Part shown: in pieces, positions 249 through 54,555 of the stretch
Layout: every line of letters begins with the position of its first letter
Numbering within the stretch: position 1 is the first letter of the stretch
NCBI GenBank assembly: GCA_964550035.1
Contig: CAZJVU010000001.1
Location: 83,990-147,989 of the forward strand
Length of the DNA: 64,000 bases
Source: an uncultured Candidatus Saccharibacteria bacterium
GTDB taxonomy: Bacteria; Patescibacteriota; Saccharimonadia; Saccharimonadales; EFPC-124
Direction: 5' to 3'
The notes under the pieces: generated by a model
Databases searched by the model: none
Seen by the model: the letters and a program-made list of their open reading frames with translations, nothing else
Told to the model about the DNA's origin: nothing
Translations under genes and position numbers: made by a program

Positions 249-278
249 TTGACGAAACTATCTTTTCGCATGTATAGT
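249..278 (+). promoter_or_regulatory. sigma70-type promoter for 317..811
   Basis: TTGACG (249-254), 18-nt spacer, TATAGT (273-278). This rules out the GTG at 281 as the start codon. Confidence 0.5.
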
Positions 279-316
279 ACGTGCGTTCTTGTTGCCAACA
301 GATTGGAAGAGCCGCG

Positions 317-811
317 ATGGGCACATTCCATCCTACACTCCCTGACGCTCAGGCGTTGATACTGGTGCGCGCTGCGCTGGCGGTTCGGGCGATCTGCATC
401 GAAGTGGCCGCGAGCATGGAAGGCCAGCCGAATGCTCCTCGCTACGGCCGGCCTCTGGCTTGGCCGCCACACCTCAAGGCCAGGCCGGCCAACGGCGCCG
501 GACTGTCGTTAGTGCTCGAAGGGTTGCCGCTGAGGGTCGCCTCGGAGTGGGGCACGCTGGAGATTGCGCCTTCGTGTTCGGAGGCGACGTCGCAGCAGAC
601 CAAGAAGGTTCTGCAGCAGCTCGCTGCGCGCCATGTTGTGCTCGACCTGGAGGGTGACCCGGACACCGAGTTCTTGCTGGTCGCGCACGTCAAGTCAGTG
701 CGCGGTGTACCGCTGCCGGCCGTCGACCCGGGTGGTCCCGGCGCGTTCCGATACTTCACGGAAGCCAAGCGGGCTTACCTGGCGGCGTGCGAGGCGATCG
801 TCCGCCGATAA
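317..811 (+). CDS. hypothetical protein (high-GC3 unit 1)
   Basis: ATG at 317 follows GGAAGAG. Codons mostly end in G/C. Own promoter and hairpin. No recognisable motif. Confidence 0.6.
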   Translation: MGTFHPTLPDAQALILVRAALAVRAICIEVAASMEGQPNAPRYGRPLAWPPHLKARPANGAGLSLVLEGLPLRVASEWGTLEIAPSCSEATSQQTKKVLQQLAARHVVLDLEGDPDTEFLLVAHVKSVRGVPLPAVDPGGPGAFRYFTEAKRAYLAACEAIVRR

Positions 812-837
812 GCCGCAGGAGCCCTCGAGGCCCAACG

Positions 838-880
838 AAAAAGAGGCTCCGCGGAGCCCATTTCCGCGGGCCTCTTTTTC
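838..880 (+). terminator. intrinsic terminator hairpin
   Basis: AAAAAGAGGC..GCCTCTTTTT arms with inner CCGCGG pairing and a T-run. Confidence 0.7.
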
Positions 881-1089
881 GTATTTATAATGCGTTTGAC
901 TATCTTTCGTTGTGGAGCGTACAATGAAAATGGTTTTCTTATACATTAAGACAAGATAACCGACTGACTGCTTTTCATTACATACTTAAGAATTTTTCTG
1001 ATACACCCTTGGACTTTAGCGGGCCCTGATAGTTGCTCACCGCGACGCCGCACACCAAGCGGTTGTGTCGTGAACAGAAAGGAAATGCT

Positions 1090-2607
1090 ATGGAAATAGC
1101 TGCTGTAATTGCCGCCATTTTAGCCGGTACTGCTGCTGGTGTTGGCGGAACGACATTACTGGCGAGGCGCCAAGGGGTGTCTGGTGCGCACAAAGCCGAG
1201 GAACTTATAGCAAAAGCAAAAAACGAGGCTCAAGACATTCTCCTTGAGGCCAAGAACAAAGCGCTCGCCGTCACGGAAGAGGCCAACAAAGCCGAGCAAA
1301 TTCGGCGCAAAGAAGTAAAAGCTGCCGAGAATCGCATCGCTGATCGCGAGCAGACACTCGACAAGAAGCTCGACGATCTCGACAAGCGCTCCGAAAAGCT
1401 CCGCAAAGCTGAATCCGAAGTCGACAACCTCAAGCAAGAGATTCGCGATATTCGAAGCAAGCAGCAAGAAAAGCTCGAGAAGATCGCCGGCCTCACCAAG
1501 AAGGACGCCGCCCAAAAACTCATGACAATGACTGAGCGCGACATTCGGAACGACCTCGTCGGTCTGGTCGCCAAGCTCCAGGCTGACGCCGAGCGCGACG
1601 CCGAAGAGCGTGCGCAGGTTGTATTGGTCAGCGCGATGGAGCGTATGGCTTCTGAGGTGACTGCCGAGAAGACCGTGACCGCTGTGAAGCTCGAAGACGA
1701 AGAAATGAAAGGTCGCATTATCGGCAAAGAAGGCCGCAACATCCAGGCGCTCCAGCGCGAGACAGGTGTTGACGTGCTTGTGGACGACACGCCTGGTATG
1801 GTTATCCTCAGCAGTTTCGACCCGGTTCGCCGCCAGGTTGCCCGCGTGGCGCTCGAGCTCCTTATGAAAGACGGTCGTATCCATCCGGCGCGCATCGAAG
1901 AAGTCGTGGCCAAAGCTCACAAACAGATCGACAAAGAAATCGACCAAGCTGGTGAAGACGCCGCGCGTGAAGTTGGCGTTGTAGGCATTCCGAAGGAAGT
2001 TTTGCGACTCCTGGGTGAGCTGAAGTTCCGCACCAGTTACGGCCAGAACGTGTTGAAGCACTCTACCGAGATGGCTCACATTGCTGGCCTCATCGCCGAA
2101 GACATCGGCGCTGACGTTCGCACCGCAAAGTACGCGGCGCTGATCCACGACATGGGCAAGGCGCTGACGCACAAGATGGAAGGCAAGCACCACCACATCA
2201 GCGGTGAAATGGCTCGCAAGTATGGCGTGCCAGAGGAAGTCGCTGTTGCTGCCGAACAACACCACGATGATGTCGAAGCCACAACGCCAGAGGCACTCAT
2301 CGTCCGTGTCGTCGACGCCCTCAGTGCTGCTCGTCCGGGTGCTCGTAACATTAGTGCCGAGAACTTTGTGGAGCGCATGCGTGAGCTCGAGAATGTCGCG
2401 ACCAGTTTCGATGGTATCGACAAGGCCTACGCCATTAGCGCTGGCCGCGAAATTCGCGTGATCGTGAAGCCGCAATCTATCGACGATCTCAGCGCGATCA
2501 AGCTCGCCCGTGATATTGCCACTAAGATCGAGAGCACCATGCAATACCCTGGTACGATCAAGGTGAACGTCGTCCGAGAAACCCGCGCAATCGAATACGC
2601 CAAATAG
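1090..2607 (+). CDS. rny: ribonuclease Y
   Basis: N-terminal TM helix, coiled-coil, KH motif (IGKEGRNIQALQRETGVDV) and HD domain (HSTEMAHIAG..IHDMGK). ATG at 1090 follows GAAAGGAA; the track start at 1033 is less likely. Confidence 0.93.
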   Translation: MEIAAVIAAILAGTAAGVGGTTLLARRQGVSGAHKAEELIAKAKNEAQDILLEAKNKALAVTEEANKAEQIRRKEVKAAENRIADREQTLDKKLDDLDKRSEKLRKAESEVDNLKQEIRDIRSKQQEKLEKIAGLTKKDAAQKLMTMTERDIRNDLVGLVAKLQADAERDAEERAQVVLVSAMERMASEVTAEKTVTAVKLEDEEMKGRIIGKEGRNIQALQRETGVDVLVDDTPGMVILSSFDPVRRQVARVALELLMKDGRIHPARIEEVVAKAHKQIDKEIDQAGEDAAREVGVVGIPKEVLRLLGELKFRTSYGQNVLKHSTEMAHIAGLIAEDIGADVRTAKYAALIHDMGKALTHKMEGKHHHISGEMARKYGVPEEVAVAAEQHHDDVEATTPEALIVRVVDALSAARPGARNISAENFVERMRELENVATSFDGIDKAYAISAGREIRVIVKPQSIDDLSAIKLARDIATKIESTMQYPGTIKVNVVRETRAIEYAK

Positions 2608-6135: not shown

Positions 6136-6540
6136 ATGGAACTTACAGCCGAAGTCGTTTGTCAGGATTTGCTCTCACTACTGAGCCGTTTCAAGCAAGA
6201 AATGGGCTCTATTGCTGACGAGCGGGGTCTGACGCCTGTGCAGCTCGCGGCGCTCTATAGGATAGACGAGCATGGTGAGCTGGCGATGGGTAAGGTTGCG
6301 CATGTCTTGCACTGTGACCCATCTAATGTAACAGGCATCGTCGATCGACTTGTCGGACACCATCTCGTGACCCGTCAGGAATGCGCAACCGACCGCCGCG
6401 CCAAGACAATCGCGCTGACCGATGAGGGTAAAAAAGTCGTCACAGAAATTATGAAAACCATGCCAGATCGGCTCGGCTGCTCTAAATTTACCCAGGCCGA
6501 GCGTGAGGCGATACATTCGGCTGTGCAGAAAGTTAGCTAG
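6136..6540 (+). CDS. MarR family transcriptional regulator
   Basis: Winged-helix pattern LTPVQLAALYRI..MGKVAHVLHCDPSNVTGIVDRLV..LV.R....DRR. Divergent from an efflux gene. Confidence 0.85.
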   Translation: MELTAEVVCQDLLSLLSRFKQEMGSIADERGLTPVQLAALYRIDEHGELAMGKVAHVLHCDPSNVTGIVDRLVGHHLVTRQECATDRRAKTIALTDEGKKVVTEIMKTMPDRLGCSKFTQAEREAIHSAVQKVS

Positions 6541-7367
6541 GTATTTTCTGGCGGCCCATCCTGGGCTAAGGCTTCTACGACCCGAACTGTCTGCTCGAGC
6601 ATTTTACTAAATCCCTGGAGTAATCCGTCCGTCCGATTTTTATCATCCGTTGCGGTAATCAATGAACTAATCTGGATTTCACCGCTGACTTTGCCTAGTT
6701 TTCTGTCGGAAACAAGGTGAAAGACTGGCGATTCATTTTCAAACGATAGAGAGGGGACGCTGAAGGTCCATTGCCACTCGTGGGGCGGCTCATCCCCAAA
6801 GGGGTCTGCTTTGAGTTCATTCTGTGCGTGACTGATTGCCGTCGCCGCAAGGATGGGCGTGCGGTGTTTGTCGATGTTATTGAATGATGCGAGTCTAAGG
6901 AGGTGGACGCCCACCACTTGGCCTAGATTGAAGGGCTGCAGATTCTTGATGGTGACCTTCAAACTTGCCGGTAAGGCGGCTAGCTTGTGCGATTTATTTT
7001 GCCAGTCTTTTGGAGTTTCGCAGATCGGAAACTCTAGCAGGTTGAGTTTTTCTGTGATGTCGAGCGAGAGCGCTTTTTCATAGACAGCATTGTCAAGCGC
7101 GCTCCTTGTGTTGTGAATCGCGTCACTAAACATAAAGCCCAGCTTTTCTAGAGGTGGCGGGGTGTCTAGCTTAATTCTCCAGGTGCAAGTGAGCCTATCC
7201 TTGGATATAGTTGGTTCAATGGCAAAGTTTGAGTGTTGTTGCCAGTGCTTAATCAATTCCTGCATGGCACGGCCTTGCTCGTCGGCCCATTCAAGCCTTC
7301 TGGCAACGTTAGGTAGTTTCTGATAGACAACATGGGGGATAAAGCTTCGCATAGTTCTATTAGACAT
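6537..7367 (-). CDS. hypothetical protein (lower-GC orphan; possible Abi/HEPN-like, unproven)
   Basis: Single long ORF with natural amino-acid composition. FSDAIHNTRSALDN and FNNIDKHRTPI motifs. No family firmly recognised. Confidence 0.6.
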   Translation of the reverse strand: MSNRTMRSFIPHVVYQKLPNVARRLEWADEQGRAMQELIKHWQQHSNFAIEPTISKDRLTCTWRIKLDTPPPLEKLGFMFSDAIHNTRSALDNAVYEKALSLDITEKLNLLEFPICETPKDWQNKSHKLAALPASLKVTIKNLQPFNLGQVVGVHLLRLASFNNIDKHRTPILAATAISHAQNELKADPFGDEPPHEWQWTFSVPSLSFENESPVFHLVSDRKLGKVSGEIQISSLITATDDKNRTDGLLQGFSKMLEQTVRVVEALAQDGPPENT

Positions 7368-7406
7368 GAAAAAACATCATCGCGCAAAACGGATGATGCC
7401 TTTTCA

Positions 7407-7482
7407 TGGTCGGGGTGAAAGGACTCGAACCTTCGACCTCACGGTCCCAAACCGCGCGCGCTACCAGCTGCGCCACACCCCG
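7407..7482 (-). tRNA. tRNA-Pro (anticodon TGG), CCA encoded
   Basis: Reverse complement folds as a cloverleaf: CGGGGTG acceptor, anticodon loop TTTGGGA, T-loop TTCGAGT. Confidence 0.9.
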
Positions 7483-7578
7483 ATAGGTGTTAATCAAACA
7501 GAATTATACTTGAAATTACCCCTGTGCACAAGAGTATTGCAAAAAGAGTCGGAGAAGGCGTAGTCTAGAAAATAGCTT

Positions 7579-7655
7579 CGGGGATTAGCGCAGCTTGGTA
7601 GCGCGCACCGTTCGGGACGGTGAGGTCGTCGGTTCAAATCCGATATCCCCGACCA
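7579..7655 (+). tRNA. tRNA-Pro (anticodon CGG), CCA encoded
   Basis: CGGGGAT acceptor, anticodon loop TTCGGGA, T-loop TTCAAAT. Confidence 0.9.
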
Positions 7656-7656
7656 T

Positions 7657-8046
7657 TTACGTTATTTCTGGATATCGATCGGCGTTTTTGCGGTAGTACG
7701 CAACCCATTTGTCGTCCTCGTCTATTTCGATGAAGTCGACGTAGAAGCCTTTTGTGAAAGGTCCGTCCTTCTTGTTTTTTATCGATTGAGCCTGCGCTAC
7801 CTCTGAACTGCTGATACCATAGAGCTCTCGTAGATCATCGAGCGCTTGCTGGACGTCTGCGATTTCGGCTGCAATGTCCTGAGGAGGAGCGTGGAGTATT
7901 TCGTGTGCTTCCTCGATGATTTTTTTGATAAGTTCTTCTTTGTGCTCTTCGGTGCCTAGCGAGCGATACGATGGTTTTGCACCGGATGCGGTTTGGTGGT
8001 CAACGATCTTGTCGCGGACGAGCTTCTTCAATTGAAATTTCAACAT
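7657..8046 (-). CDS. MazG-like all-alpha NTP pyrophosphohydrolase (house-cleaning type)
   Basis: N-terminal KLVRDKI motif and EEAHE..EIADV acidic helices, typical of the MazG/PRA-PH superfamily. Confidence 0.65.
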   Translation of the reverse strand: MLKFQLKKLVRDKIVDHQTASGAKPSYRSLGTEEHKEELIKKIIEEAHEILHAPPQDIAAEIADVQQALDDLRELYGISSSEVAQAQSIKNKKDGPFTKGFYVDFIEIDEDDKWVAYYRKNADRYPEIT

Positions 8047-8070: not shown

Positions 8071-8110
8071 GCGGGGCGGCCCGAGGACACTGCTGCCCGG
8101 GCCGCCCCGC
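8071..8110 (-). terminator. GC-rich hairpin downstream of 8118..8441
   Basis: Perfect 13-bp stem GCGGGGCGGCCCG/CGGGCCGCCCCGC. Confidence 0.65.
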
Positions 8111-8117: not shown

Positions 8118-8441
8118 CTACCGCGGTCGTGTTCTGAACCACTGGAGGGTCTTGGCCCTCATGTCTAAAAGTTTGGCAGCCTGGAAGGTGTTCAGCACGA
8201 TGTTGTGGTCGGCCATGCTGATCGGCTCGCAGAAGGTCAGGTCCCTGACTTCGCCGGTTTTCGACGAGACGGCCAAGAAAAGTGTTCCTGCGTTCTCCGT
8301 GGCTCGAATGAGGTAGAGACCACTCATTGTGGACAGGTACAGCTCCCAGCCGGCATCATGCTGCCAGATGGGCGTGATGTTTTTGATCCTGGACTCGATG
8401 AGGAGGTTGCGGAGCTCGGCGGTCGCGATCTTCGGATCCAT
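8118..8441 (-). CDS. hypothetical protein (high-GC3 unit 2)
   Basis: AAGGGAG SD before the ATG. Mostly G/C-ending codons. Own hairpin. Confidence 0.6.
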   Translation of the reverse strand: MDPKIATAELRNLLIESRIKNITPIWQHDAGWELYLSTMSGLYLIRATENAGTLFLAVSSKTGEVRDLTFCEPISMADHNIVLNTFQAAKLLDMRAKTLQWFRTRPR

Positions 8442-11859: not shown

Positions 11860-14499
11860 ATGTGCGGAATTGCTGGTTATTGTCATCTTGAAAACGGATC
11901 CGAAAAACTCCTAAAGTCCATGAATGCCTCGCAGGCCCACCGCGGTCCTGACGGCGAGGGCTATTACGTGGATGGGTCGATTGGTCTAGCGCAGCTGCGT
12001 CTGGCTATTATCGACCGCGAACACGGCGTACAGCCGCTGTATAACAAAGACAAATCACTCGTGATCGTCTATAACGGTGAGGTCTACAACTACCGTGAGC
12101 TCCGCACAGAACTCGAAGCCGAAGGGCATGAGTTTGCCACGCAGTCGGACACCGAAGTTGTGCTCCAAGCCTACGCCGCCTGGGGTACTGCCGCATTCGA
12201 CAAACTCAATGGCATGTTTGCGCTGGCTATCCACGACAAGAAGGCCGACAAGCTCGTCCTGGCGCGCGACCATTTCGGCATCAAGCCGCTGTATGTGGCG
12301 CGACCAGCAAAAGGTCAGCTCATGTTCGCTTCAGAGATCAAACCACTTATCGAATCTGGTCTTATCGAGAAAAAACCAAATGACCGCGCTATCTACCGCT
12401 ATCTTCGTTTCCGCATCCACGAAGACTCGAGTGAGACGTTCTTTGCTGGCATCACCAAGCTGATGCCGGGCGAAGTCCTCGAAATCACCAAAGACGGTGA
12501 GAAACTCAGTAGCTTCACAACGCTCAAAGACGACCTCAAACGCTTGGCGAGCGAAAACAACCCATACAGCGCCGACGCAGCCGCAGAGTACAAAAAGCGT
12601 CTGATGGAGTCGATCAAAGTCCGTCTGCAAAGCGAAGTGCCAGTTGGTACCAGCTTCTCTGGTGGGCTCGACAGTTCGACTGTCGTCGCGGTCATCAACC
12701 AGCTCATGAAGGATGACAAAGGTTCGACTGCATCAGTCGGCGCGCGCCAGAACACTTTCAGCGCTATCTTCCCTGGCTCGGCCAATGACGAAGAAAAATA
12801 CGTCGACTCGCTACTCCAGCGTGTTGGCGACAGCGTCACGGCGCACAAGATCAAGCCCGACGCCGACACATTCGTGAAGGATCTCGAAGATTTCATCCGT
12901 ACCCAGGAAGAACCACTCATCAGCACTGGACCATACGCTCAGTACAAGGTTATGCAAGAAGCAACCAACCACGTCACCGTTCTACTGGATGGCCAGGGCG
13001 CCGACGAGACAATGGCTGGCTATATCCCGTATTACTTCGTGTACCTCAGACAGCTGAAGGCACGGGGCGAGTGGGGCAAGCTGATCAGCGAGATCATCAG
13101 CAGCTCTGATATTTTCTATCGCTTCGCCAAAGTAAACCTCCGCGAGCGGATCCTCCGCAAGACGCCAGTCCGCGTGGCCCAGCTCATGAACCGCGAATTC
13201 AGCACAAAGTTTGCCGACGAGAAGTTCGTGACCACGCCGGACAATCTCAAGCTCCGTCTTGTCGAGGACACATTCAGCAACAGCCTGCCGTCGCTCCTGC
13301 GCTACGAAGATAAAAACACCATGCGCTTCAGCCTGGAAGGTCGTGTGCCATTCCTCGACAAAGACGTGCTGAAGTTCCTCTTTGCGCTGGACGACGAGTC
13401 GATCATCAAGGGCGGCTGGAACAAACGCATCTTGCGCGACGCCACTCGTGACTTACTACCACCGATGATCAACCGCCGGCGCAACAAGATCGGCTTCACG
13501 ACTCCAGAGCACGAATGGTTTATGCGCCTCAAGAATCGCTTCTACGGCATATTCCTGAGCGAAGAGTTCGTCAACCGACCGTACTGGGATGCACAGGCAG
13601 TCGCCGAAGCGTTCGAAGGATTTATCAAAGGCAAGAACGACAGCAACAGCTTGCTGTACTGGCGATTCCTGAACGTCGAACTCTGGCTGCGCGAGTTCTT
13701 TGACGAGAAGAAAGACGAAGAGCCCGTGCACGAGAAGGGCGAGCTCGAACCAAACGAAGGCAAGCAGCTCGATATCACAGCCGGCGGTGCAGAATATCGC
13801 CGCTATCCGCTGCGCACCGACTTCGTGACGGCTAAGGACAACTTGCAGGAGTTTGTCACGGCTCGGGTCAGCAAATTCTTCGAAAATCTCAGTTCCGACA
13901 AAGCGCATGCTGAGTACAAAACACACGATTGGTACTTCCTCATCAGCGAAAAGATTGTCGCCATCACACAAGGTCGTAGCTACTTTGTATGGGATATTAC
14001 GCCAGGCTGGTGGGCGCGGTTCCTGAGCAAGCGCGTGACCAAGACGCCGTATGGCATTGGTTTGGGCAGTCCATGGACAATGCAGCTTGCCATCCAGGAA
14101 GTGGGCTTGCCAAAGATTCTGTATGCCTCAATCGGCGGCGCCATTGGCAAGATGATCGGTAAGCGCGGCACATTCTATAATCTCGTGGGCAGCGACATCC
14201 GCGCCATCGACGGCCCGACCGAATATTCAGTCTACCCCAGTAATGTCAGTGCTAAGCTTGCACCGAAAGACCCTGACCTTGTTTCGCAGCAGCTTGCTGA
14301 CGCCATTCGTGCGGCCGTCCCAAAGACAGCAGCTGAGCATTTCAAAGGCGTGGTCGTGATCGATAGCAACGACATCGGCCGCAATGTCTTGGGTCAAAAC
14401 ACGGGCGAGGACGAGAAGCTTTTCGAAGATATCTTTGGCGACAATCCGCTCGGACAGGCCGATCAGCGAACGCCGCTTTGCATTGTATTTAAGAAATAG
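11860..14499 (+). CDS. asnB: asparagine synthase (glutamine-hydrolysing) fused to a C-terminal CofE-like (F420-0:gamma-glutamyl ligase fold) domain
   Basis: MCGIAGY Ntn nucleophile and SGGLDSS PP-loop. The last ~250 aa carry ISEKIVAITQGR, IRAIDGP, VVVIDSNDIGRN and LGQADQRTPLCIV, collinear with CofE motifs. Confidence 0.8.
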   Translation: MCGIAGYCHLENGSEKLLKSMNASQAHRGPDGEGYYVDGSIGLAQLRLAIIDREHGVQPLYNKDKSLVIVYNGEVYNYRELRTELEAEGHEFATQSDTEVVLQAYAAWGTAAFDKLNGMFALAIHDKKADKLVLARDHFGIKPLYVARPAKGQLMFASEIKPLIESGLIEKKPNDRAIYRYLRFRIHEDSSETFFAGITKLMPGEVLEITKDGEKLSSFTTLKDDLKRLASENNPYSADAAAEYKKRLMESIKVRLQSEVPVGTSFSGGLDSSTVVAVINQLMKDDKGSTASVGARQNTFSAIFPGSANDEEKYVDSLLQRVGDSVTAHKIKPDADTFVKDLEDFIRTQEEPLISTGPYAQYKVMQEATNHVTVLLDGQGADETMAGYIPYYFVYLRQLKARGEWGKLISEIISSSDIFYRFAKVNLRERILRKTPVRVAQLMNREFSTKFADEKFVTTPDNLKLRLVEDTFSNSLPSLLRYEDKNTMRFSLEGRVPFLDKDVLKFLFALDDESIIKGGWNKRILRDATRDLLPPMINRRRNKIGFTTPEHEWFMRLKNRFYGIFLSEEFVNRPYWDAQAVAEAFEGFIKGKNDSNSLLYWRFLNVELWLREFFDEKKDEEPVHEKGELEPNEGKQLDITAGGAEYRRYPLRTDFVTAKDNLQEFVTARVSKFFENLSSDKAHAEYKTHDWYFLISEKIVAITQGRSYFVWDITPGWWARFLSKRVTKTPYGIGLGSPWTMQLAIQEVGLPKILYASIGGAIGKMIGKRGTFYNLVGSDIRAIDGPTEYSVYPSNVSAKLAPKDPDLVSQQLADAIRAAVPKTAAEHFKGVVVIDSNDIGRNVLGQNTGEDEKLFEDIFGDNPLGQADQRTPLCIVFKK

Positions 14500-36244: not shown

Positions 36245-36274
36245 GGCTTGGGCGGGGTAACTCCCGCTCAAGCC
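36245..36274 (+). terminator. GC-rich hairpin
   Basis: GGCTTGGGCGGG/CCCGCTCAAGCC. Confidence 0.55.
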
Positions 36275-42488: not shown

Positions 42489-42585
42489 AATGCTTTTATT
42501 ATATCACGAATGAGATAAATGCAAGTTTTTGTCGCGCACAAGCGGCCATTTTTGACATAGTATATCTAGGTGGTACGATTGATAC

Positions 42586-42980
42586 GTTCAGAATCCCTGC
42601 TATCAAGAGGAGTCAGGATGTCCACGCGCACCATGGAGTCGCACGACAGGGTCAAGATCGTCGACGTGCGGTCCACGTACGCCAACATCGAGATCACGGC
42701 GGGCGACGGCCCCACCGTTCCGAAGGTGAAGGGTCCGCGCTCGATGATCGGCCTGGTGCACTGCAACGCGCTGCCGGTGAAGAAGGGCGTCACGCTGATC
42801 GTGTCCAACGTGGAGAAGCCGGTCGGTGACGCCGTGGAGCACACGGTGACCAAGAAGGCGCCGTTCCGCTCCGCTCCGCCCATGGCGGGAGTCACGATCA
42901 CGATGACCGTGGAGCCGGGCACGATCGTGCAGAGCTGAATACCAGCGGTGGCTCGGTCGGGTACCTCGCCCGACCGAGCC
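42586..42980 (+). repeat. cassette copy 1 (conserved 5' leader + diverged CDS + conserved hairpin)
   Basis: GTTCAGAATCCC at 42586 and the 42-nt block CCAGCGGTGGCTCGGTCGGG.ACCTCGCC.GACCGAGCCCCG (40/42 identical to copy 2). Confidence 0.75.
42618..42938 (+). CDS. hypothetical protein, cassette paralogue 1 (high-GC3 unit 9)
   Basis: AGAGGAG SD. Only 5 of 106 sense codons end in A/T (hand count). Confidence 0.7.
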   Translation: MSTRTMESHDRVKIVDVRSTYANIEITAGDGPTVPKVKGPRSMIGLVHCNALPVKKGVTLIVSNVEKPVGDAVEHTVTKKAPFRSAPPMAGVTITMTVEPGTIVQS

Positions 42981-43017
42981 CCGTTGCGAAAAATCAGAAA
43001 GATGCTATTATAGTTTT

Positions 43018-43418
43018 GTTCAGAATCCCCGATCTCGAGGAGTTGAGTCGTGAGCGAATACAGGTTGGGCCGGTTCAAGGAGGTGGGGGTGGTGGACGTT
43101 CGCAGACTGAACGCCCAGGTCAAGATTTTCCCCAGCGGACAGGGCATCACCGACCCGCTCGTCACCGGTCCTCCCGTGAGGATCCGTCGCGTGACGACCA
43201 CCGTGACGCGCAACGAAAAGGACGGCAAGAAGCTGGTCCTGACCAACAGCAAGGCGCAGGCCGGCGGTGATCCGCAGGTCACAGTGATCACGGACAAACC
43301 GTTCGAACGCCTCGACTCGGGCGCGCCGATCATGGTCGAACTGTTCGTCCGACCCGGCACACGCGTCTTCCACTGAACGCCAGCGGTGGCTCGGTCGGGC
43401 ACCTCGCCTGACCGAGCC
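43018..43418 (+). repeat. cassette copy 2
   Basis: Same GTTCAGAATCCC leader (43018) and same 3' hairpin block (43388-43418). Confidence 0.75.
43050..43376 (+). CDS. hypothetical protein, cassette paralogue 2 (high-GC3 unit 10)
   Basis: GTG start after GAGGAG. Shares V.VVDVR near the N-terminus and PF...V.PGT.V at the C-terminus with 42618..42938. Confidence 0.65.
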   Translation: MSEYRLGRFKEVGVVDVRRLNAQVKIFPSGQGITDPLVTGPPVRIRRVTTTVTRNEKDGKKLVLTNSKAQAGGDPQVTVITDKPFERLDSGAPIMVELFVRPGTRVFH

Positions 43419-43507
43419 CCGCGGCACACTATAGTGATACAATGAACTTATGATCTAATAGAACTCGCATCAACCAGAGTTACTAAACTTTATACGGAGA
43501 TTAACCG

Positions 43508-44786: not shown

Positions 44787-45170
44787 ATGAAGGAATCGCT
44801 CCCTACGATATTTCAGCGTATCGAAAACGTCAGCATCGCGATGCTTGCGCTGCTGGTATATACGCGGCTCGAGTTTGCATGGTGGTGGCTGCCGATTTTG
44901 TTCATAGCTTTTGACCTATCGACGCTCGGGTACATCGTGAATCCACGCATCGGCGCGATTATGTACAATGCATTTCACAACTACCTCGTGCCGGTCGGCG
45001 CACTGACGGTTGGCTATGCGATGGGTGCGACGCCGAGCTGGCTACTACTGGTCTGCTTGGTGTGGATTTTCCACATCGCAACAGACCGCGTGCTGGGGTA
45101 TGGACTGAAATATCCTGATGGGTTTGGGCACACGCATCTCGGCATAATTGGCAAGAAGGAGCGCTCATGA
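44787..45170 (+). CDS. DUF4260 family membrane protein
   Basis: W.LP..F.AFDLS.LGY..NPRIGA..YN.FHNY pattern. Confidence 0.6.
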   Translation: MKESLPTIFQRIENVSIAMLALLVYTRLEFAWWWLPILFIAFDLSTLGYIVNPRIGAIMYNAFHNYLVPVGALTVGYAMGATPSWLLLVCLVWIFHIATDRVLGYGLKYPDGFGHTHLGIIGKKERS

Positions 45171-45808
45171 CCATCGACCAAGCAACGCAGATACTCTGGG
45201 ACTATCACCATATGCATCACGAGCTCAAGCCAGCAGACTGCTTGTTCGTGCTGGGCAATAGCGATATCCGCACCGCTGATCGCGCGGTTGAATTGTACGA
45301 TCAAGGTCTCGCGCCGCTGGTGCTGGTGACCGGAGGTGCCGGACGGTTTACGAAAGATATGTTTACCGAGAGTGAAGCATCGGTCTTTGCCAAGCGCATG
45401 GTCTCAAAGGGTGTGCCGGCGCGCGTCATCCTCCAAGAGGATCGGTCGACAAACACGGGTGATAACTTCGTGATGGGTATGCGTCGGCTCGCGGAGATGG
45501 GCTACATGGCGCAGTCGCTCATCGTGGTGACCAAGCCGTATATGGAGCGCCGGGCATACGCCACAGGCATGAAGCAGCTTGCTGGTGTGACGATGCAAAT
45601 GGCTTCGCCAGAGATTAGCTGGGAAGATTATCCGACGGACGAACTTCCTCGCGATAAAGTTATCAACATTATGGTTGGCGATCTCCAGCGTATTATCGAG
45701 TATCCCAAGCTTGGCTTCCAGATTGAGCAAGACGTTCCAACCGAAGCTCGAGCCGCGATGGAATATCTAATCGCGCAAGGGTACGACCAGTCGCTTATCA
45801 AAGAATAG
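45167..45808 (+). CDS. YdcF/DUF218 family protein
   Basis: ADCLFVLGNSD..RA.ELY..GLAPLVLVTGG. Confidence 0.7.
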   Translation: MTIDQATQILWDYHHMHHELKPADCLFVLGNSDIRTADRAVELYDQGLAPLVLVTGGAGRFTKDMFTESEASVFAKRMVSKGVPARVILQEDRSTNTGDNFVMGMRRLAEMGYMAQSLIVVTKPYMERRAYATGMKQLAGVTMQMASPEISWEDYPTDELPRDKVINIMVGDLQRIIEYPKLGFQIEQDVPTEARAAMEYLIAQGYDQSLIKE

Positions 45809-45838
45809 CCCCGGGGAGTTGCTGCGCCCTGGGAACCC

Positions 45839-45871
45839 GCCCTGTGCCCGACATTTCGCCAGGCACAGGGC
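45839..45871. terminator. GC-rich hairpin between convergent genes
   Basis: GCCCTGTGCC/GGCACAGGGC. Confidence 0.55.
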
Positions 45872-45875
45872 AGGA

Positions 45876-46136
45876 TTAGTCTGCTTGTGAGGGGGAGATG
45901 ACGACGGTGCCGGTCTGGTCTGTGGGCTCGACGGTGTGGTCGAGCTCGAGGATTGCGGCCACTACTTCGTCGAGTAGTTCGAAGTCGTCGCAATGAAATC
46001 GCAACCCCTTACCCGACCGCTTGAGTTCCCACGGAGAGTCGCCCCTACGGTAGACGTTCAACTCCACGTAGGTCTCAAGCCCAATGAATCGCAGCCCCAA
46101 CTGTATGTAGTCGAGTGCCGCGGCAGCAGAGTCCAT
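45876..46136 (-). CDS. hypothetical 86-aa protein (high-GC3 unit 11)
   Basis: AGAGGAG SD. C-terminal C.D...L.E.V....D.H.VE......V.I.P pattern shared with 46257..46547. Confidence 0.55.
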   Translation of the reverse strand: MDSAAAALDYIQLGLRFIGLETYVELNVYRRGDSPWELKRSGKGLRFHCDDFELLDEVVAAILELDHTVEPTDQTGTVVISPSQAD

Positions 46137-46218
46137 ACTCGCTCCTCTATCGTAGACGCAGCAGGTCTTACTGTAGAGCGCGTGAAGTCTCAGGGGTAGC
46201 GAATTTACGCAATAAGTT

Positions 46219-46257
46219 CAGGGGGGTGCTACAGCCCCTGGTCGGGCCCCGCGGGGC
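46219..46257 (-). terminator. GC-rich hairpins overlapping the stop of 46257..46547
   Basis: CAGGGG..CCCCTG and GCCCCGCGGGGC. Confidence 0.5.
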
Positions 46258-46547
46258 TACTTGAATGTGGGGGTGATCAGTACTTTCTGGTTGTTGACGC
46301 GTTCCACGGAGTGGCCGTCAGCTTCGACGAGCTGTACGAATTCACGCAGCACGTCCACGTCGATGCACACTGCCACCACCTTGCCGGTGGGCTTGGGCCT
46401 GCGCGACCAGCGGTGCTTCTTGAGCTTCTCTCTGGACAGAGACCACATCAGAGGGTCCGTGGCCTCAAAGGCACCACCTGCCTTCAAGGTGGGAAGAGCA
46501 TTTGTGAGGTTGTCCATCATGAATTGAGCGTGATCGTGGTGGGGCAT
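46257..46547 (-). CDS. hypothetical 96-aa protein (high-GC3 unit 12)
   Basis: TAAGGAC SD with TGGTATAGT extended -10 upstream on the minus strand. Confidence 0.55.
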   Translation of the reverse strand: MPHHDHAQFMMDNLTNALPTLKAGGAFEATDPLMWSLSREKLKKHRWSRRPKPTGKVVAVCIDVDVLREFVQLVEADGHSVERVNNQKVLITPTFK

Positions 46548-46607
46548 CGCAGTCCTTACCGGGCTGTAGCTTGTATACTATACCATCTATGTGTGGACTC
46601 AGCTATG

Positions 46608-47096
46608 TCAGTCGATGCTTGCGATGGTCAGTTCTTGCTTATTGGGGAGTGTAACGCTCTCGCCAACCTGTTTGTCGAGGAGTGAAGCGCCCAGCGGTGA
46701 CTGGCAACTGATGACCATGTGCTCGTCGATGAATTCACCGAGGCGGAATGTCCAGTGGCCAGCGAGGAAGTAGTGATGGTGCGACCGCTTGGCTTTGTTC
46801 TCGAGTTTGACGCGCGAACCAATGCTGACCTTGTCGGTCTGTGCGGTAGGGACGGAGGGCGAAGATTTACTGAGCGTCTCTTTGAGTGTCTGAAGTTCGG
46901 CCACAAGGACGGCTTGTTTTTCGCGGAGTGCATCGAATGGGGCATTGTCGTGCCAGGTTTCGGATGTTTGGTTGAGTGCCTCGTGGAAAGCTGGCCCGAG
47001 GTTCAGAATCTCGCGTTCAATAGCAGCAATTCTCGTACGGGCGAGGGTCTTATCTTCCTCGAGGATGTAGTAGGTTTGTGCAGTATTTTGGGTCAT
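46608..47096 (-). CDS. greA: transcription elongation factor GreA
   Basis: N-terminal coiled-coil with ..ETWHDNAPFDALREKQ.. and C-terminal ISCQSPLGASLLDKQVGESV. Confidence 0.88.
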   Translation of the reverse strand: MTQNTAQTYYILEEDKTLARTRIAAIEREILNLGPAFHEALNQTSETWHDNAPFDALREKQAVLVAELQTLKETLSKSSPSVPTAQTDKVSIGSRVKLENKAKRSHHHYFLAGHWTFRLGEFIDEHMVISCQSPLGASLLDKQVGESVTLPNKQELTIASID

Positions 47097-49261: not shown

Positions 49262-49606
49262 ATGGAGTTCTTGGGTGGAACCATGCGCGAGCGAGAAGCC
49301 AGCCGGGAAATTTGGAGAGCATGGCGACAGGCCAATCGCGAGTCGCCGAAGCGAGTTTTCGCTGAGCGCTTTGTGCCGCTGATGGAAGCTCAAATCACCG
49401 CGCCGGCCAAATCCACAAAGTTCCATCTCTCCAGTGTGGCGGGGGAGATCAAGGAGCAGGTGGAGAAGAACGAGCTGGACGGCCGCGCGCTGCAGCCCAG
49501 CGAGCTCAGGGATGCCCTCCTGACACTGATAAAGTGCTGGCAGTACAGTGTGTCACTGCGCAACTGGGCGATCTCGCAGGGCTACATCACGGCCAGCGAC
49601 CGCTGA
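49262..49606 (+). CDS. hypothetical protein, triple-array paralogue 1 (high-GC3 unit 13)
   Basis: CAGGGAG SD. MEFLGG start and C-terminal NWAISQGYI. Confidence 0.6.
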   Translation: MEFLGGTMREREASREIWRAWRQANRESPKRVFAERFVPLMEAQITAPAKSTKFHLSSVAGEIKEQVEKNELDGRALQPSELRDALLTLIKCWQYSVSLRNWAISQGYITASDR

Positions 49607-49634: not shown

Positions 49635-49967
49635 ATGAAGTTCCTGGGCAAGAACGTGGTTCAGCAGAATCGAAGTCGCATCCGGTGGGAGCGATGGATC
49701 GAGTCGGTCGGGCCACAATCGCGTAAGGCGAAGTTCGCTGTTCGGTTTGTCGAAGCAGCCGAAGGTTTCATCGCGGGGACATTTCCTTTGGCCCCTGTGG
49801 CCTGGAGCGCCGTGCAGATAGCGAACCGCGAGGCGCTGAACAACAATTCGCTGACCGACGCAGAGCTCGTGGATGTCATCCGGGCACTCAGGCCGGTCTG
49901 GAAATACGGCCAAGCGTTACATAAATGGGCCATCTCGCGTGGATACATCGTGGAGGGACAAGCATGA
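49635..49967 (+). CDS. hypothetical protein, triple-array paralogue 2
   Basis: GAAGGAG SD. MKFLGK.., W..W..SVGPQSRKAKFA.RFV and KWAISRGYI. Confidence 0.65.
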   Translation: MKFLGKNVVQQNRSRIRWERWIESVGPQSRKAKFAVRFVEAAEGFIAGTFPLAPVAWSAVQIANREALNNNSLTDAELVDVIRALRPVWKYGQALHKWAISRGYIVEGQA

Positions 49968-50284
49968 AGTTCGTTGGTGATACTCCGGCTCAGCGTGGGC
50001 GAAGCGGCGAAGCATGGGAGGGCTGGCTGCAGTCCGTGGGCCCGAAGTCTCGAAAGGCACGCTTCGCTCGGCGGCTCGTTCGGGAAATCGAGTCGCGCGT
50101 GCGGCGCCCCAATCCGCATGTTGCGCAGGTGGCCGCAGACGCCGTAGCCACAGCCACCAGGGTAACCCTCAAAGAGCGGGGGCTGACCAAGGAGGAGTTC
50201 CAAGAAGTCGTGCAAGCGCTGCTGGCCTCGTGGCACCATGGTCACTCGTTCCGAATCTGGGCAAGCAGGAACGGTCACATCTAG
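49964..50284 (+). CDS. hypothetical protein, triple-array paralogue 3
   Basis: GGAGGG SD and ATGA overlap. MKFVGD.., W.GW.QSVGPKSRKARFA.R.V and IWASRNGHI. Confidence 0.65.
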   Translation: MKFVGDTPAQRGRSGEAWEGWLQSVGPKSRKARFARRLVREIESRVRRPNPHVAQVAADAVATATRVTLKERGLTKEEFQEVVQALLASWHHGHSFRIWASRNGHI

Positions 50285-50310
50285 AAGGAAGATCGCCGAC
50301 AGACGCTCGT

Positions 50311-50348
50311 GTTGGGCCCGCGCCACTCAGTGGCGGCGCGGGCCCAAC
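50311..50348 (+). terminator. GC-rich hairpin
   Basis: GTTGGGCCCGCGCC / GGCGCGGGCCCAAC 14-bp stem. No U-tract. Confidence 0.6.
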
Positions 50349-50405
50349 AAAAACCCAACAGGGTACACGGTCTCATCCCCATCTGTTATAATGAGCAGTT
50401 GTTAC

Positions 50406-50482
50406 GCCCCCGTAGCTCAGCGGATTAGAGTAACTGGCTTCGAACCAGTTGGTCGCAAGTTCGAATCTTGCCGGGGGTACCA
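50406..50482 (+). tRNA. tRNA-Arg (anticodon TCG), CCA encoded
   Basis: GCCCCCG acceptor, anticodon loop CTTCGAA, T-loop TTCGAAT. Confidence 0.88.
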
Positions 50483-51830: not shown

Positions 51831-51870
51831 ATGTTTATTCTAGCATTTATCGAATGGGTATGTGGTTATC

Positions 51871-51899
51871 TTTACATCGATGCCAAAATATTTTAGAAT
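51871..51899 (+). promoter_or_regulatory. near-consensus promoter upstream of 51987..53669
   Basis: TTTACA, 17 nt, TAGAAT. Confidence 0.55.
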
Positions 51900-51916
51900 A
51901 CTCATGTTGTAGCAGC

Positions 51917-51938
51917 AGAGGCACCCAGCCTCTTTTTT
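51917..51938 (+). terminator. terminator-like hairpin inside the leader (possible attenuator or very short RNA)
   Basis: AGAGGC ACCCA GCCTCT followed by TTTTT, about 10-35 nt after the predicted start site. Confidence 0.4.
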
Positions 51939-51986
51939 GCTACATGCACCCCATATCCGTCTCGATCGATTCCTCAGGGAGAATCC

Positions 51987-53669
51987 GTGAGTCAGACAAC
52001 TGCGCTGCCCAGGCGGCGGCGCAAAAACCGTGGCAAGACGATCGTCGTCCTGCTGGTGGTGCTGGCGCTCGGCGCCGGAGCCATCTACTGGTTCGGCTTC
52101 CGCAAGCCCGAAGACGTCACCAAGGATGCGTACCACGACATCGGCAACGGTGTCAGCATCTCGCAGGGCGCGCCGGACAACGTCAAGGCCGAGCTGGACG
52201 ACAAGATCGCGAAGGCGCAGATCCCGCAGGTCGAGCAGACCGGCGCCGTCGTGCACATCACGCCGGACGGGCCGCTCGCCGCATCGGCCACGCTGCGATT
52301 CAAGCTCACCCACAAGGTCGACGACCCCCGGGACATCCTCCTGGCGGTCAACAAGACCGGCAAGGCCGAGGACTGGACGCTGGAGCGCCCGACCAAGGTC
52401 GACGGTGAGTACGCCTACTTCATCACCGACCACCTGTCGTGGTGGGAGCCGCTGTGGCAGAGCTTCACGAACCTGGTCAACGCGACCGGGGACGAACTGA
52501 AGCGACAGTGGAACGGCCTGACGAGCGACGCGTTCGCCGAAGCCGAACAGCCGAAGTGCCAGAACGAGCAGGAGGCCCGCGACAAGGGTTACTCCATCGG
52601 CTGGAAGGGCGCCGAGGTGCTGTACTGGTGCCTCGGCCTGGAGAACGGCAAGCCCGTGGTGCACATCGCCAACAAGCGGCGGTACCCGGTGTTCGTCAAC
52701 CACAAGGGCATCAGTGTCCCCGAGAAGCCTAAGTCGAAGCTCGGCTTGGAGATGCTCGGGCGGCAGTCCTTCAGTGACGACCGCACGGTGATGATGCCCT
52801 TCGATCAGCTCGGACTCAACTTCGATCTGGACAAGGGCGGGAGCAAGACCTTCTACACCGAGTACAACGGCTTCGCCGAGAGTCTGTACCAGCTGGAGTT
52901 CGGTGTCACCACGCTGATCAACATCCTCACGCGCTACGGTGCGGGAGGGGGCACGATCAGCAACGGTGCCATCAAGATCACCGAGTTCGACCGTGTCGCC
53001 GAGAAGATGGGCAAAGCTATCGAGCGCAAGGAGTGTCTCAACGCGCTCAGCACCGACAAGCCCGACTCGGGCGCCATCCTCAGCGGCTGTTTCAGCCCCG
53101 CTGCCATCGCCGACATGTTCGGCTGGAAGGGCGTGCTCGTGGCCGTGGTGATGGCCGCGGCGCCGATCGTGAACTTCTTCCGGAACTCGTTCGAAACCCT
53201 CGGCGACCTGCTCCAGGCCAAGGACCAGGAGATGGTGACGGTCAGCTTCAACCCGCCGGCGCCGGCGGCTGCGTTGTTCGTCGGCAAGTGGACCGTGCAC
53301 GGCGCGCAGATGACGATCAACAAGGACGGCACCGGCACCTACAGCTGGAATGCCGGTCCTTGCACCGACACGGCCGGCCAGGACCAGATGTGTCAGGGCA
53401 ACGCCTCGCTGCGTTTCACGGTCAACGGTGACACGATGACCGGCACGTACGTCAAGGTGTGGTTCGCGGCCGACGGCAAGCCGGCGCCCGCGGGCTTCGA
53501 CGGTGGGTACAACGGCCGCATGGAAGGCAAGACGTTCACCATGCGGCGCAATGACGAGCACACGCTGATCACCAGCAACGGCACCGGGGACCGACCCGGC
53601 AACCCGTACCTGTGCGACGACTACGCCGAGAACCACAACGACTCGACGTACACGCTGTGCGGCGCGTGA
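51987..53669 (+). CDS. N-terminally anchored exported protein of unknown function (high-GC3 unit 14)
   Basis: GTG start after AGGGAG. RRRRKNRGK plus a TM helix. Cys-rich C-terminal module. The opposite-strand 637-aa ORF is R/V/G/H-rich shadow. Confidence 0.7.
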   Translation: MSQTTALPRRRRKNRGKTIVVLLVVLALGAGAIYWFGFRKPEDVTKDAYHDIGNGVSISQGAPDNVKAELDDKIAKAQIPQVEQTGAVVHITPDGPLAASATLRFKLTHKVDDPRDILLAVNKTGKAEDWTLERPTKVDGEYAYFITDHLSWWEPLWQSFTNLVNATGDELKRQWNGLTSDAFAEAEQPKCQNEQEARDKGYSIGWKGAEVLYWCLGLENGKPVVHIANKRRYPVFVNHKGISVPEKPKSKLGLEMLGRQSFSDDRTVMMPFDQLGLNFDLDKGGSKTFYTEYNGFAESLYQLEFGVTTLINILTRYGAGGGTISNGAIKITEFDRVAEKMGKAIERKECLNALSTDKPDSGAILSGCFSPAAIADMFGWKGVLVAVVMAAAPIVNFFRNSFETLGDLLQAKDQEMVTVSFNPPAPAAALFVGKWTVHGAQMTINKDGTGTYSWNAGPCTDTAGQDQMCQGNASLRFTVNGDTMTGTYVKVWFAADGKPAPAGFDGGYNGRMEGKTFTMRRNDEHTLITSNGTGDRPGNPYLCDDYAENHNDSTYTLCGA

Positions 53670-53706
53670 GCTCAGGGGTGCAATAAGGTCACGGAAACGT
53701 AACCTG

Positions 53707-53747
53707 CGGTGGGCGGCGGCCGGAGAAATCCTGGCCCCGCCCACCGT
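53707..53747 (+). terminator. GC-rich hairpin
   Basis: CGGTGGGCGG / CCGCCCACCG outer stem. Confidence 0.55.
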
Positions 53748-53777
53748 GAACACAATGAAATAATTTCATGGGGGTTA

Positions 53778-53800
53778 CGGGGGAGCGCGTGGCTCCCCCG
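53778..53800 (-). terminator. GC-rich hairpin
   Basis: CGGGGGAGC GCGTG GCTCCCCCG. Confidence 0.55.
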
Positions 53801-53808
53801 GCCCTTTT

Positions 53809-54555
53809 CTACAGGGGTTTGAGGTACTTGAAGTAGTTCTTCAGGTCAAATTCACCGATCTGCATGGCGTTGTAGTGGTCGGCCGAGTAGACCGGCCAGT
53901 CGGGCGTGAACTGCCTCCAGGCCTTCCTCCACTCCGGCGGAAGGTAGTAGAGCGGACGGCCCTGGTTCAGTGCGAGTTCGGTGTCGATCAGGCCTTCCAG
54001 GTGGTCGATCTCGTGCTGCAGGAACCACGCGTCGGTGCCCTCGACGATCTGGGGCGTTTTGCCGGGGACGTAGAGAATGATCTTCTTCCACCGCATGACC
54101 ACGACGCCGATTCCCGGTGCGGAGAAGCAGGACTCCCGCCGCTCCACCATGCCGGCTTCCTTGACCGGCTTGTAGCTCGGATTGAGCAGGGTGGCCACGT
54201 TCGCGGTGCGGTTCTCCTCGCGAGCGTCCGCCATCCCCAGCTGCACGGCCAGTGCGCGAACGTTGCGTTTGCTGGCGCACGCGAGCTGGGGGAAGGCCAT
54301 GCCGACCGCTTTGAGTGGTGAGGTGCTGTCGCGGTTGGTGTGCTCGCCCAAGAGCTCGATACCGCGACGGATCTCGGGGTTTTTCAGATCGGCGCGAGTC
54401 ACTCGCGAGGCCGGCCTGCGAAGGTGGGGCGATGACGGCGGCGCCAGTCCTTCGCTCAGCTCACGTCGGTAGGCCTCGACGAGTCCATGAGTGGGACGCC
54501 ACCAGCCTGGCGGCAGTCCGTTGCCAAGGAGCTTTACTTTCGGTAGCTGCTTCAT
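53809..54555 (-). CDS. divergent peptide deformylase-like metallohydrolase with N- and C-terminal extensions (high-GC3 unit 15)
   Basis: The three PDF motifs in order: GMAFPQ (GxGxAAxQ-like), ESCFS (EGCLS-like) and QHEIDHLEG (HExxH). AGGGAG SD. Confidence 0.65.
   Translation of the reverse strand: MKQLPKVKLLGNGLPPGWWRPTHGLVEAYRRELSEGLAPPSSPHLRRPASRVTRADLKNPEIRRGIELLGEHTNRDSTSPLKAVGMAFPQLACASKRNVRALAVQLGMADAREENRTANVATLLNPSYKPVKEAGMVERRESCFSAPGIGVVVMRWKKIILYVPGKTPQIVEGTDAWFLQHEIDHLEGLIDTELALNQGRPLYYLPPEWRKAWRQFTPDWPVYSADHYNAMQIGEFDLKNYFKYLKPL

Follow-up and report, generated by a model that had tools for sequence, protein, structure and literature searches.

Why should small stand-alone genes with third codon positions richer in G and C than those of the surrounding housekeeping genes be scattered through the genome of a Saccharibacterium? 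The question is raised by a stretch of 64,000 nucleotides (the window; contig CAZJVU010000001.1, positions 83,990 to 147,989) from an uncultured Candidatus Saccharibacteria bacterium, in which a preliminary description listed fifteen such units and took them for repeated captures from actinobacterial hosts or their phages. Here we find that the genes open to comparison have orthologues at corresponding positions in diverged relatives and that, in the one gene tested in detail, the GC content at third codon positions (GC3) is being maintained rather than lost. We suggest, in a reading on which our confidence is evenly balanced, that the units are a long-resident and actively maintained class of accessory genes in which GC3 is held by a force acting on the transcript, with old actinobacterial exchange in two of the families.

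Pfam searches with the long open reading frames (ORFs) of the window, which has a GC content of 55.4%, identified RNase Y, MscS, YmdB, PBP1, AsnB, ClpB, a P-type ATPase, MurA, serine hydroxymethyltransferase (SHMT), GreA and MurB, among others. In a genome scan the nearest relatives of MurB came from metagenome-assembled genomes (MAGs) of Candidatus Saccharimonadales, the top one, 85% identical, belonging to a soil MAG of 55% GC. The backbone is therefore that of a relatively GC-rich soil Saccharimonadales.

The fifteen units were treated as 18 genes, named here by their lower coordinate, and compared with 45 backbone genes (GC3 0.634 ± 0.069, range 0.35-0.75). Five are strong outliers (z ≥ 3; 24157, 26908, 42618, 43050 and 51987) and six are moderate ones (z 2-3; 317, 8118, 30101, 36041, 49262 and 53809), whereas 14546, 24877, 29692, 45876, 46257, 49635 and 49964 are like the backbone (z < 2; Table 1). 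High GC3 thus holds for 11 of the 18 listed genes and not for the other seven, and a scan of the window gave no high-GC3 ORFs beyond the list. Most units resemble the backbone in the GC contents of first and second codon positions (GC1 and GC2), and about half do so in amino-acid make-up. Within the synonymous codons CCC, CGG, AGG and TCC rise, CGC falls and the C-ending two-fold codons reach 86-100%, while GreA, ClpB, RNase Y and SHMT, plausibly well-expressed backbone genes, have a GC3 of.64-.71. Earlier hand counts of codons ending in A or T proved exact (5 of 106 in 42618-42938, 13 of 65 in 36041-36238 and 33 of the first 60 in rny, read from the ATG at 1090), but the contrast that they implied was too large. 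The first 60 codons of rny exaggerate it since the whole gene has only 188 of 524 such codons (36%), and backbone GC3 is 0.63 rather than about 0.45. Long antisense ORFs run across several high-GC3 genes (51840-53753, 637 aa; 42566-43429, 287 aa; 49661-50326, 221 aa; all on the minus strand). They are by-products of the GC3 richness and could mislead gene callers.

The units are also distinguished by what flanks them. The strongest hairpin 3' of the stop codon averages -25.6 kcal/mol in the units against -15.0 kcal/mol in the backbone (Mann-Whitney p = 4e-4); nine units have a hairpin of -30 kcal/mol or stronger and two more have hairpins of -24 and -21 kcal/mol. Under a strict definition (at least 12 Watson-Crick pairs, at most one mismatch and at least 70% GC) the whole window contains four hairpins, all directly 3' of units. 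A T-tract is missing from most unit hairpins and present at backbone terminators (MFS, GT2, sortase, MFS2 and h151). At most two T follow in the 10 nt after the stems of 14546, 30101, 42618, 43050, 49964, 51987 and 53809, and clear T/A tracts are seen at 317 only. Compared with a canonical intrinsic terminator, the GC-rich stems are there but the U-tract is lacking. Shine-Dalgarno (SD) motifs precede 15 of the 18 unit genes and 12 of 46 backbone genes, and sigma70-like matches lie immediately upstream of 42618, 43050, 51987 and 54555(-). The hairpin without a U-tract, the SD motif and the promoter-like site are therefore borne out as marks of a unit, as had been proposed.

Between orthologues the hairpins hold their position while their sequence is altered, the pairing being retained through compensatory differences, which suggests that they are functional. 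The hairpin at 53706-53747 has an equivalent of altered sequence in one relative (L014), and that at 8071-8110 has a counterpart in another (L022) at the same position, with other sequence and the pairing kept. They are putative terminators that could equally be 3' stabilisers. In Actinobacteria, 'I-shaped' intrinsic terminators consist of a hairpin without a U-tract, and the units resemble these in ending, just past the stop codon, in near-perfect GC-rich stems with no T-tract. Unlike the actinobacterial case, they stand in a Saccharimonadales genome whose other operons use canonical U-tract terminators. Two further readings of the hairpins were rejected: integron cassettes with attC sites, by eye (no integrase among the scanned proteins, own promoters and no GTTRRRY core sites flanking the hairpins), and a family of repetitive extragenic palindromes or miniature inverted-repeat transposable elements (no sequence common to the hairpins except in the duplicated 42943/43383 pair). 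None of the scanned window proteins matched integrase or transposase families, in line with the preliminary description, though duplicated tRNA ends were not searched for; six tRNA genes are present, some of them adjoining units. The four paralogue arrays described earlier were recovered, 29692/30029, 42618/43050 and 49262/49635/49964 by BLASTP and 45876/46257 by profile comparison only (hhalign 92.6%, E 5e-7, over the C-terminal half).

How old are the units? Relatives were collected through homologues of the unit genes. Five diverged ones (L001, L014, L018, L022 and L020, the last a contig of 1.08 Mb; 84-96% identity in MurB, SHMT or RNase Y) cover stretches with units and a sixth contig, L024, holds one homologue, so that ten of the 18 genes could be checked in diverged relatives. 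All ten have orthologues in the same slots across L001, L014, L018, L020 and L022. In L018, where SHMT is 96% identical, the order is MurA, a 111-aa gene of the 42618 family, SHMT, DUF4260, an orthologue of 46257, GreA, further genes, MurB, three Tad4-like genes, further genes, a 561-aa orthologue of the 560-aa protein encoded at 51987, a deformylase-like gene and a cluster of nine genes; L020 and L014 have the same gene order. The orthologues have a GC3 of.72-.90, except for that of 45876 in L020 (.68), against mostly.57-.74 in their neighbours. At the four-fold degenerate sites of SHMT, MurB and GreA the window is 28-45% identical to L014 or L020, where saturation would give 28-33%. From a rough two-state calculation, a neutral gene that started near a GC3 of 1.0 would by now stand no higher than about.75 in any lineage; the gene of the 560-aa protein is at.89-.92 in four lineages. 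Capture that was recent, or repeated independently, does not agree with ten syntenic genes retaining high GC3 while backbone synonymous sites approach saturation. Nor are the slots empty in close relatives, as would be expected of islets, the orthologues being in place in all five.

The relatives carry further high-GC3 genes without a family that have no counterpart in the window (L014 5931-6209; L020 7848-8123, 13957-14802 and 17333-18679; L024 99-665; L027 1489-1866 and 7773-8084). Examples among the relatives are a Zn-ribbon protein of 91-92 aa (GC3.92-.94) and proteins of 281 aa (.90) and 448 aa (.86). This indicates that the phenomenon is a property of the clade. No such genes were found in the stretches sampled from the lower-GC Saccharimonadales L002, L004 and L028.

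The origin of the bias was investigated by polarising four-fold changes on the branches to the window and L018, with L020 and L014 as outgroups, for the gene of the 560-aa protein. Changes between G and C (S→S, strong to strong) affected 13 of 90 ancestral G/C sites in this gene and 20 of 138 in the backbone (p = 1.0). Changes from G or C to A or T (S→W, strong to weak) affected 6 of 90 and 34 of 138 sites, respectively (p = 3e-4), a 3.7-fold suppression. The equal S→S rate indicates that the gene is as old as its surroundings and has had the same mutational input. Since GC→AT change is suppressed while G↔C change runs at the backbone rate, the composition is maintained in situ and is not a fading donor signature; in this gene there is no sign of ongoing amelioration towards the host composition. 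The result fits either selection for G or C at synonymous sites or biased gene conversion. As GC3 is flat along the gene, being.92 both in the region matched by shorter Amycolatopsis homologues and in the C-terminal remainder, and the GC content falls to.30-.42 in the upstream promoter, a transcript-bounded force is favoured over regional conversion. In nucleotide identity to L018 the gene exceeds its flanks (85.8% against 77-82%; window 51888-53755, L018 9903-11772), although the protein is less conserved than those of the flanks (82% against mostly 80-96%). The high nucleotide identity follows from the suppression of GC→AT change at synonymous sites.

The 560-aa protein also gives the clearest view beyond the clade. 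Its syntenic orthologues in L018, L014 and L020 are 82, 63 and 62% identical, with a GC3 of.89-.90. The unit proteins were concatenated for a HMMER search, of which the best 150 of 510 matches (at least about 116 bits) were considered, nearly all of them to this protein; the search also recovered exact copies of three of the unit proteins. Among these are about 20 orthologues of 55-82% identity, and those that can be placed by name or syntenic context belong to Saccharimonadales. Next closest among the same matches are chromosomal hypothetical proteins of at least nine Amycolatopsis strains (49-59% identity), and in a neighbour-joining tree an Amycolatopsis-only clade is sister to the Saccharimonadales clade of the family. 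The wider family mixes low-GC-type and high-GC-type amino-acid make-up. The Amycolatopsis homologue, in a genome of 73% GC, ranks lowest in GC3 among its neighbours (.87 against.90-.97) and has one of the lowest GC1 values, so that export from the epibiont lineage seems as plausible as import. The structural model (predicted local distance difference test, pLDDT, 69; predicted template-modelling score, pTM,.43) shows a membrane anchor, two beta-sandwich domains with ZU5-like matches of low template-modelling (TM) score and, at the C-terminus, a barrel modelled with confidence that is similar to the periplasmic domain of ToxS, again at low TM. With these model scores and only low-TM matches, the protein was placed in no family.

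The second family with a link to Actinobacteria is the array at 49262, and it adds to the deformylase-like product, which had been thought the only one of a recognisable family. Its first copy reaches 31.6 bits against Pfam Tad4 (PF25186, gathering threshold 25 bits), while the 49635 and 49964 copies score 17.0 and 22.4, under the threshold. In precomputed Pfam matches PF25186 is assigned to the window copy as well as to its orthologue in L018, the family being otherwise tiny; L018 has three such genes and L020 one. The AlphaFold2 model (pLDDT 87) is a five-helix bundle with one floppy loop of low confidence (residues 47-55). A BFVD fold search gave two uncharacterised viral proteins on top (probability 1.0 and.98, TM.58-.61), the second being from Mycobacterium phage Phabba, whereas no match in the PDB was found by sequence or by fold. 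Tad4 is a phage protein that binds the Toll/interleukin-1 receptor (TIR) protein ThsB of Thoeris, its flexible loop entering and blocking the active site (PMC13402655). The array is like Tad4 in its first copy passing the Pfam threshold and in the shape and size of the protein, a small bundle of helices, about 110 aa long, with one low-confidence loop. It differs in its place, on a chromosome and not in a phage, in its triplication and in its conservation within a Saccharimonadales clade, and also in having two of three copies under the threshold and no match to a solved structure. Its products resemble a phage anti-defence family and the fold of a mycobacteriophage protein, and may act against TIR immunity.

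The deformylase-like product scores 55.4 bits against Pfam PF01327 (cut-off 22.8) and contains GMAFPQ, ESCFS and HEIDH, which we take to be the three catalytic motifs of peptide deformylases. It falls far below the NCBIfam cut-offs (TIGR00079, 32 against 104; NF001159, 50.5 against 125), and its L018 and L020 orthologues share 50-53% identity with it, at a GC3 of.87 and.78.

A phage or plasmid source finds no support in the searches. A concatenated tblastn of all unit products gave nothing in 50,697 phage genomes or 72,556 plasmids. PHROGs gave nothing except a weak match for a gene of the Tad4-like array and the deformylase match. In IMG/VR the 24157, 42618 and 560-aa families had no matches, and the Tad4-like protein had only trivial ones of 18 residues. 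PADLOC returned nothing useful, and PDB sequence searches with three families gave no match. The actinobacterial or actinophage donors proposed for the units as a whole therefore keep a basis in the 560-aa family, through Amycolatopsis, and in the Tad4-like fold match; for the other families no such link was found, in searches of limited sensitivity for the small proteins. The same genes with the same composition are common to the relatives that could be checked, and two of the families do have actinobacterial or actinophage counterparts.

Taken together we would propose the following. The units would be vertically inherited, long-resident accessory genes of a soil Saccharimonadales clade, each an autonomous monocistronic unit made up of a sigma70-like promoter, an SD motif, an ORF and a GC-rich 3' stem-loop without U-tract. 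At least two families, the 560-aa surface protein and the Tad4-like helical proteins, would have entered or left the lineage by old exchange with the actinobacterial world. A gene- or transcript-bounded force would disfavour synonymous GC→AT change, holding GC3 at 0.8-0.95 in about 11 genes, and the same force would conserve the terminal hairpins by compensatory change. We take this force to be, most likely, selection on the mRNA, with the stability or expression of these stand-alone transcripts, as a class, as its target. That the set forms a host-interaction repertoire, as had been suggested, would be a reasonable guess prompted by the Tad4-like array, the surface protein and the position of 8118 beside a slot that in L022 holds an anti-phage system.

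Some observations weigh against this proposal. The polarised counts are small (6 and 34 S→W changes) and were obtained by parsimony with saturated outgroups, and biased gene conversion predicts an identical S→W suppression. The codon shift of the units resembles actinobacterial usage. Weak actinobacterial homologues of the small proteins may lie outside the best 150 of the 510 HMMER matches. Finally, 14546, 24877, 26908, 29692/30101 and 36041 were seen elsewhere only in an identical-strain copy (L013, a Logan contig from a different run).

Under translational selection the units would simply be highly expressed native genes using the optimal codons of the organism, an explanation we regard as rather improbable. 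Such genes are likewise marked by extreme synonymous bias, a strong SD motif and a dedicated promoter and terminator, and the C-ending two-fold codons and the lower synonymous divergence of the gene for the 560-aa protein would also be expected. The bias is, however, a generic one for G or C: no particular codon seems to be favoured, because G↔C changes are unconstrained, and the preference of the backbone is not amplified, CGC dropping as CCC, CGG, AGG and TCC rise. The modest GC3 of GreA, ClpB, RNase Y and SHMT points the same way, in a reference set without ribosomal-protein genes.

It would seem fairly unlikely that the cause is GC-biased gene conversion, reportedly described in recombining bacterial genes by Lassalle et al. 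in 2015, with fast-evolving accessory genes recombining often between strains and biased repair lifting their GC3. The combination of suppressed S→W with neutral S→S change is its signature, the proteins of the units evolve faster than those of the backbone and the gene of the 560-aa protein stands above its flanks in nucleotide identity. Yet the affected stretches match ORF ends within about 100 nt, promoter GC remains at 30-42%, each lineage shows the effect in the same genes, and its size, about +0.25-0.3 in GC3, to our knowledge exceeds anything reported for bacterial gene conversion.

Repeated and fairly recent capture of genes from actinobacterial hosts or actinophages, with GC3 and hairpins as unameliorated donor features, we consider unlikely, and it is largely refuted in those families that allowed a check. 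The actinobacterial look of the codon shifts, the hairpins without U-tract, the Amycolatopsis sister clade, the mycobacteriophage fold match and the emptiness of some slots in more distant Saccharimonadales all speak for it. Against it are the synteny and high GC3 seen in five diverged relatives although synonymous sites are close to saturation, the suppression rather than excess of GC→AT change, the backbone-like GC1 and GC2 of most units and amino-acid make-up of about half, the lack of phage, plasmid or IMG/VR homologues, and the Amycolatopsis homologue being the least GC-rich gene among its neighbours. Atypical acquired genes of the kind that the amelioration model of Lawrence and Ochman is said to describe share with the units an odd third-position composition, a position in gaps between housekeeping genes, restriction to a lineage and, in one family, relatives in another phylum. 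The units differ from them in being GC-richer rather than AT-richer than the genome, in having no mobility genes among the scanned proteins and in being syntenic across synonymously saturated relatives with no excess of GC→AT change.

We think it very unlikely that an actinobacterial 'dialect' of GC-ending codons and hairpins without U-tract is kept since the genes work across the boundary between epibiont and host, being expressed in the host, plausibly Amycolatopsis, or continually exchanged with it, with the Tad4-like proteins disarming Thoeris-type TIR immunity and the 560-aa protein mediating contact. Mis-joining of high-GC fragments from co-occurring Actinobacteria into a contig of the Candidate Phyla Radiation (CPR), for which the compositional contrast alone would speak, can be dismissed through independent assemblies: L013 is 100% identical over 7.3 kb (window 20003-27332), three units and their junctions included, and L018, L019, L022 and L023, which come from other samples, have the same junctions at a nucleotide identity of about 80%.

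The smaller families follow the same pattern where relatives are available. The 317 orthologue in L022 is 74% identical (GC3.72) and, as in the window, is placed between TsaB and RNase Y; the product has no match in Pfam, PHROG or NCBIfam. Orthologues of 8118 in L022 and L023 are 87% identical, with a GC3 of.79. Between MarR and 8118 lies a variable slot (window 6537-8046) with two tRNA-Pro genes. It holds a 276-aa gene (GC3.54) without a Pfam, PHROG or PADLOC match, and in L022 (4812-7049) a pair of the cyclic-oligonucleotide-based anti-phage signalling system CBASS (CD-NTase_C and Cap15) instead; it looks like a defence-island slot. One gene of the 42618 family occupies the slot between MurA and SHMT in L001 (GC3.81), L018 (.88) and L020 (.82), the duplication being confined to the window, and the slot is empty in the more distant Saccharimonadales L002, L003 and L006. 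Between SHMT and GreA, orthologues of 45876/46257 occur in L014 (GC3.78), L018 (.77) and L020 (.68), while window 44803-46608 is missing from L001. For the units at 14-36 kb comparison was limited to the identical-strain copy, apart from a homologue of 24157 in L024 (50% identical, GC3.84), a genome of 51% GC with a backbone GC3 of.41-.58 that is taken to be a related CPR or Saccharimonadales lineage. Next to this homologue is a DUF397 gene (L024 4639-4995) with a GC3 of.68, against that same backbone; we take DUF397 to be typical of Streptomyces-type Actinobacteria. A metagenome scan led by the HD hydrolase gave only relatives of at most 57% identity, none with homologues of the 24-36 kb units. 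The product of 24877 has no family match in Pfam, PHROG, PADLOC or NCBIfam.

Table 1. Units, their 3' hairpins and the tRNA genes of the window.
Feature	Coordinates	Strand	Details
164-aa hypothetical gene	317-811	+	GC3.77, moderate outlier
Hairpin after 317-811	835-882	+	-35 kcal/mol; A/T tracts on both sides, classical bidirectional terminator
tRNA-Pro	7407-7482	-	Between MarR and 8118
tRNA-Pro	7579-7655		Between MarR and 8118
GC hairpin after 8118-8441	8071-8110	-	88% GC, -37 kcal/mol
107-aa hypothetical gene	8118-8441	-	GC3.79
98-aa hypothetical gene	14546-14842	+	GC3.73, not distinct; perfect 14-bp hairpin at 14851-14886
tRNA-Gly	19700-19774		
tRNA-Arg	19955-20031		
189-aa conserved-family gene	24157-24726	-	GC3.86; motifs HPSPA..W and FIVK.Q.AHKVLGC; no strong hairpin
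370-aa hypothetical gene	24877-25989	-	GC3.66, equal to backbone
93-aa very acidic protein gene	26908-27189	+	pI 4.1, GC3.86; hairpin 27193-27244 (-38 kcal/mol)
tRNA-His	27298-27374		3' of the hairpin after 26908-27189
Tandem paralogue pair	29692-30499	+	130 aa, GC3.66; 132-156 aa, GC3.81; 35% identity, E 4e-14
Hairpin after 29692-30499	30510-30553		Common to the convergent ADH gene
65-aa hydrophobic (membrane) peptide gene	36041-36238	+	GC3.80; hairpin 36245-36274
Tandem pair	42618-43422	+	42618-42938, GC3.95; 43050-43376, GC3.84; each with promoter-like site and SD
Near-identical GC hairpins of the 42618/43050 pair	42943-42986, 43383-43422		
Two distant paralogues	45876-46547	-	86 and 96 aa, GC3.73 and.75, not distinct
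Three tandem Tad4-like paralogues	49262-49606, 49635-49967, 49964-50284	+	GC3.77,.69 and.71; hairpin 50310-50349
tRNA-Arg	50406-50482		3' of the Tad4-like array hairpin
560-aa membrane-anchored protein gene	51987-53669	+	GC3.92, even along the gene
GC hairpin after the 560-aa gene	53706-53747	+	-37 kcal/mol, no T-tract
248-aa divergent peptide-deformylase-like gene	53809-54555	-	GC3.82; hairpin 53773-53804

Several features of the surrounding backbone were also noted. An AT-rich islet (19700-21251, GC.465) lies beside the tRNA-Gly and the first tRNA-Arg gene and contains a methyltransferase-like gene with a GC3 of.49 and a 142-aa gene at.35. Low GC of this kind is the classical mark of foreign DNA, the reverse of the units. 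MurA (40962-42488, minus strand), of the EPSP_synthase fold, has an N-terminal XRE-type helix-turn-helix domain (HTH_3, E 2e-16), and the same fusion is found in L018. The asparagine synthase (11860-14499) has a C-terminal extension of about 230 aa with a weak F420-ligase-like match (E 3e-4, under the cut-off). The nine clustered genes at 54640-62795 have no Pfam matches, several having high GC2 (.52-.62) and low GC1; their order is kept in L018 at 66-92% identity, and they may encode a surface or pilus-like apparatus.

Accessory genes are usually AT-richer than the genome that carries them and drift towards its composition. The conserved set described here is instead richer in GC3, with a bias that is actively kept up in the single gene examined closely. 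It makes a tractable system in which to ask whether mRNA stability, biased conversion or matching to a host favours G and C at the synonymous sites of a tiny CPR genome. If it is functional, a conserved and triplicated Tad4-like family in an epibiont would mean that counter-defence against TIR proteins is not confined to phages. The hosts of environmental Saccharibacteria have been described as largely unknown, and evidence for gene transfer between host and epibiont as lacking (PMC8406219); the Amycolatopsis-only sister clade of the 560-aa family is a concrete hint as to which host a clade of soil Saccharimonadales may have.

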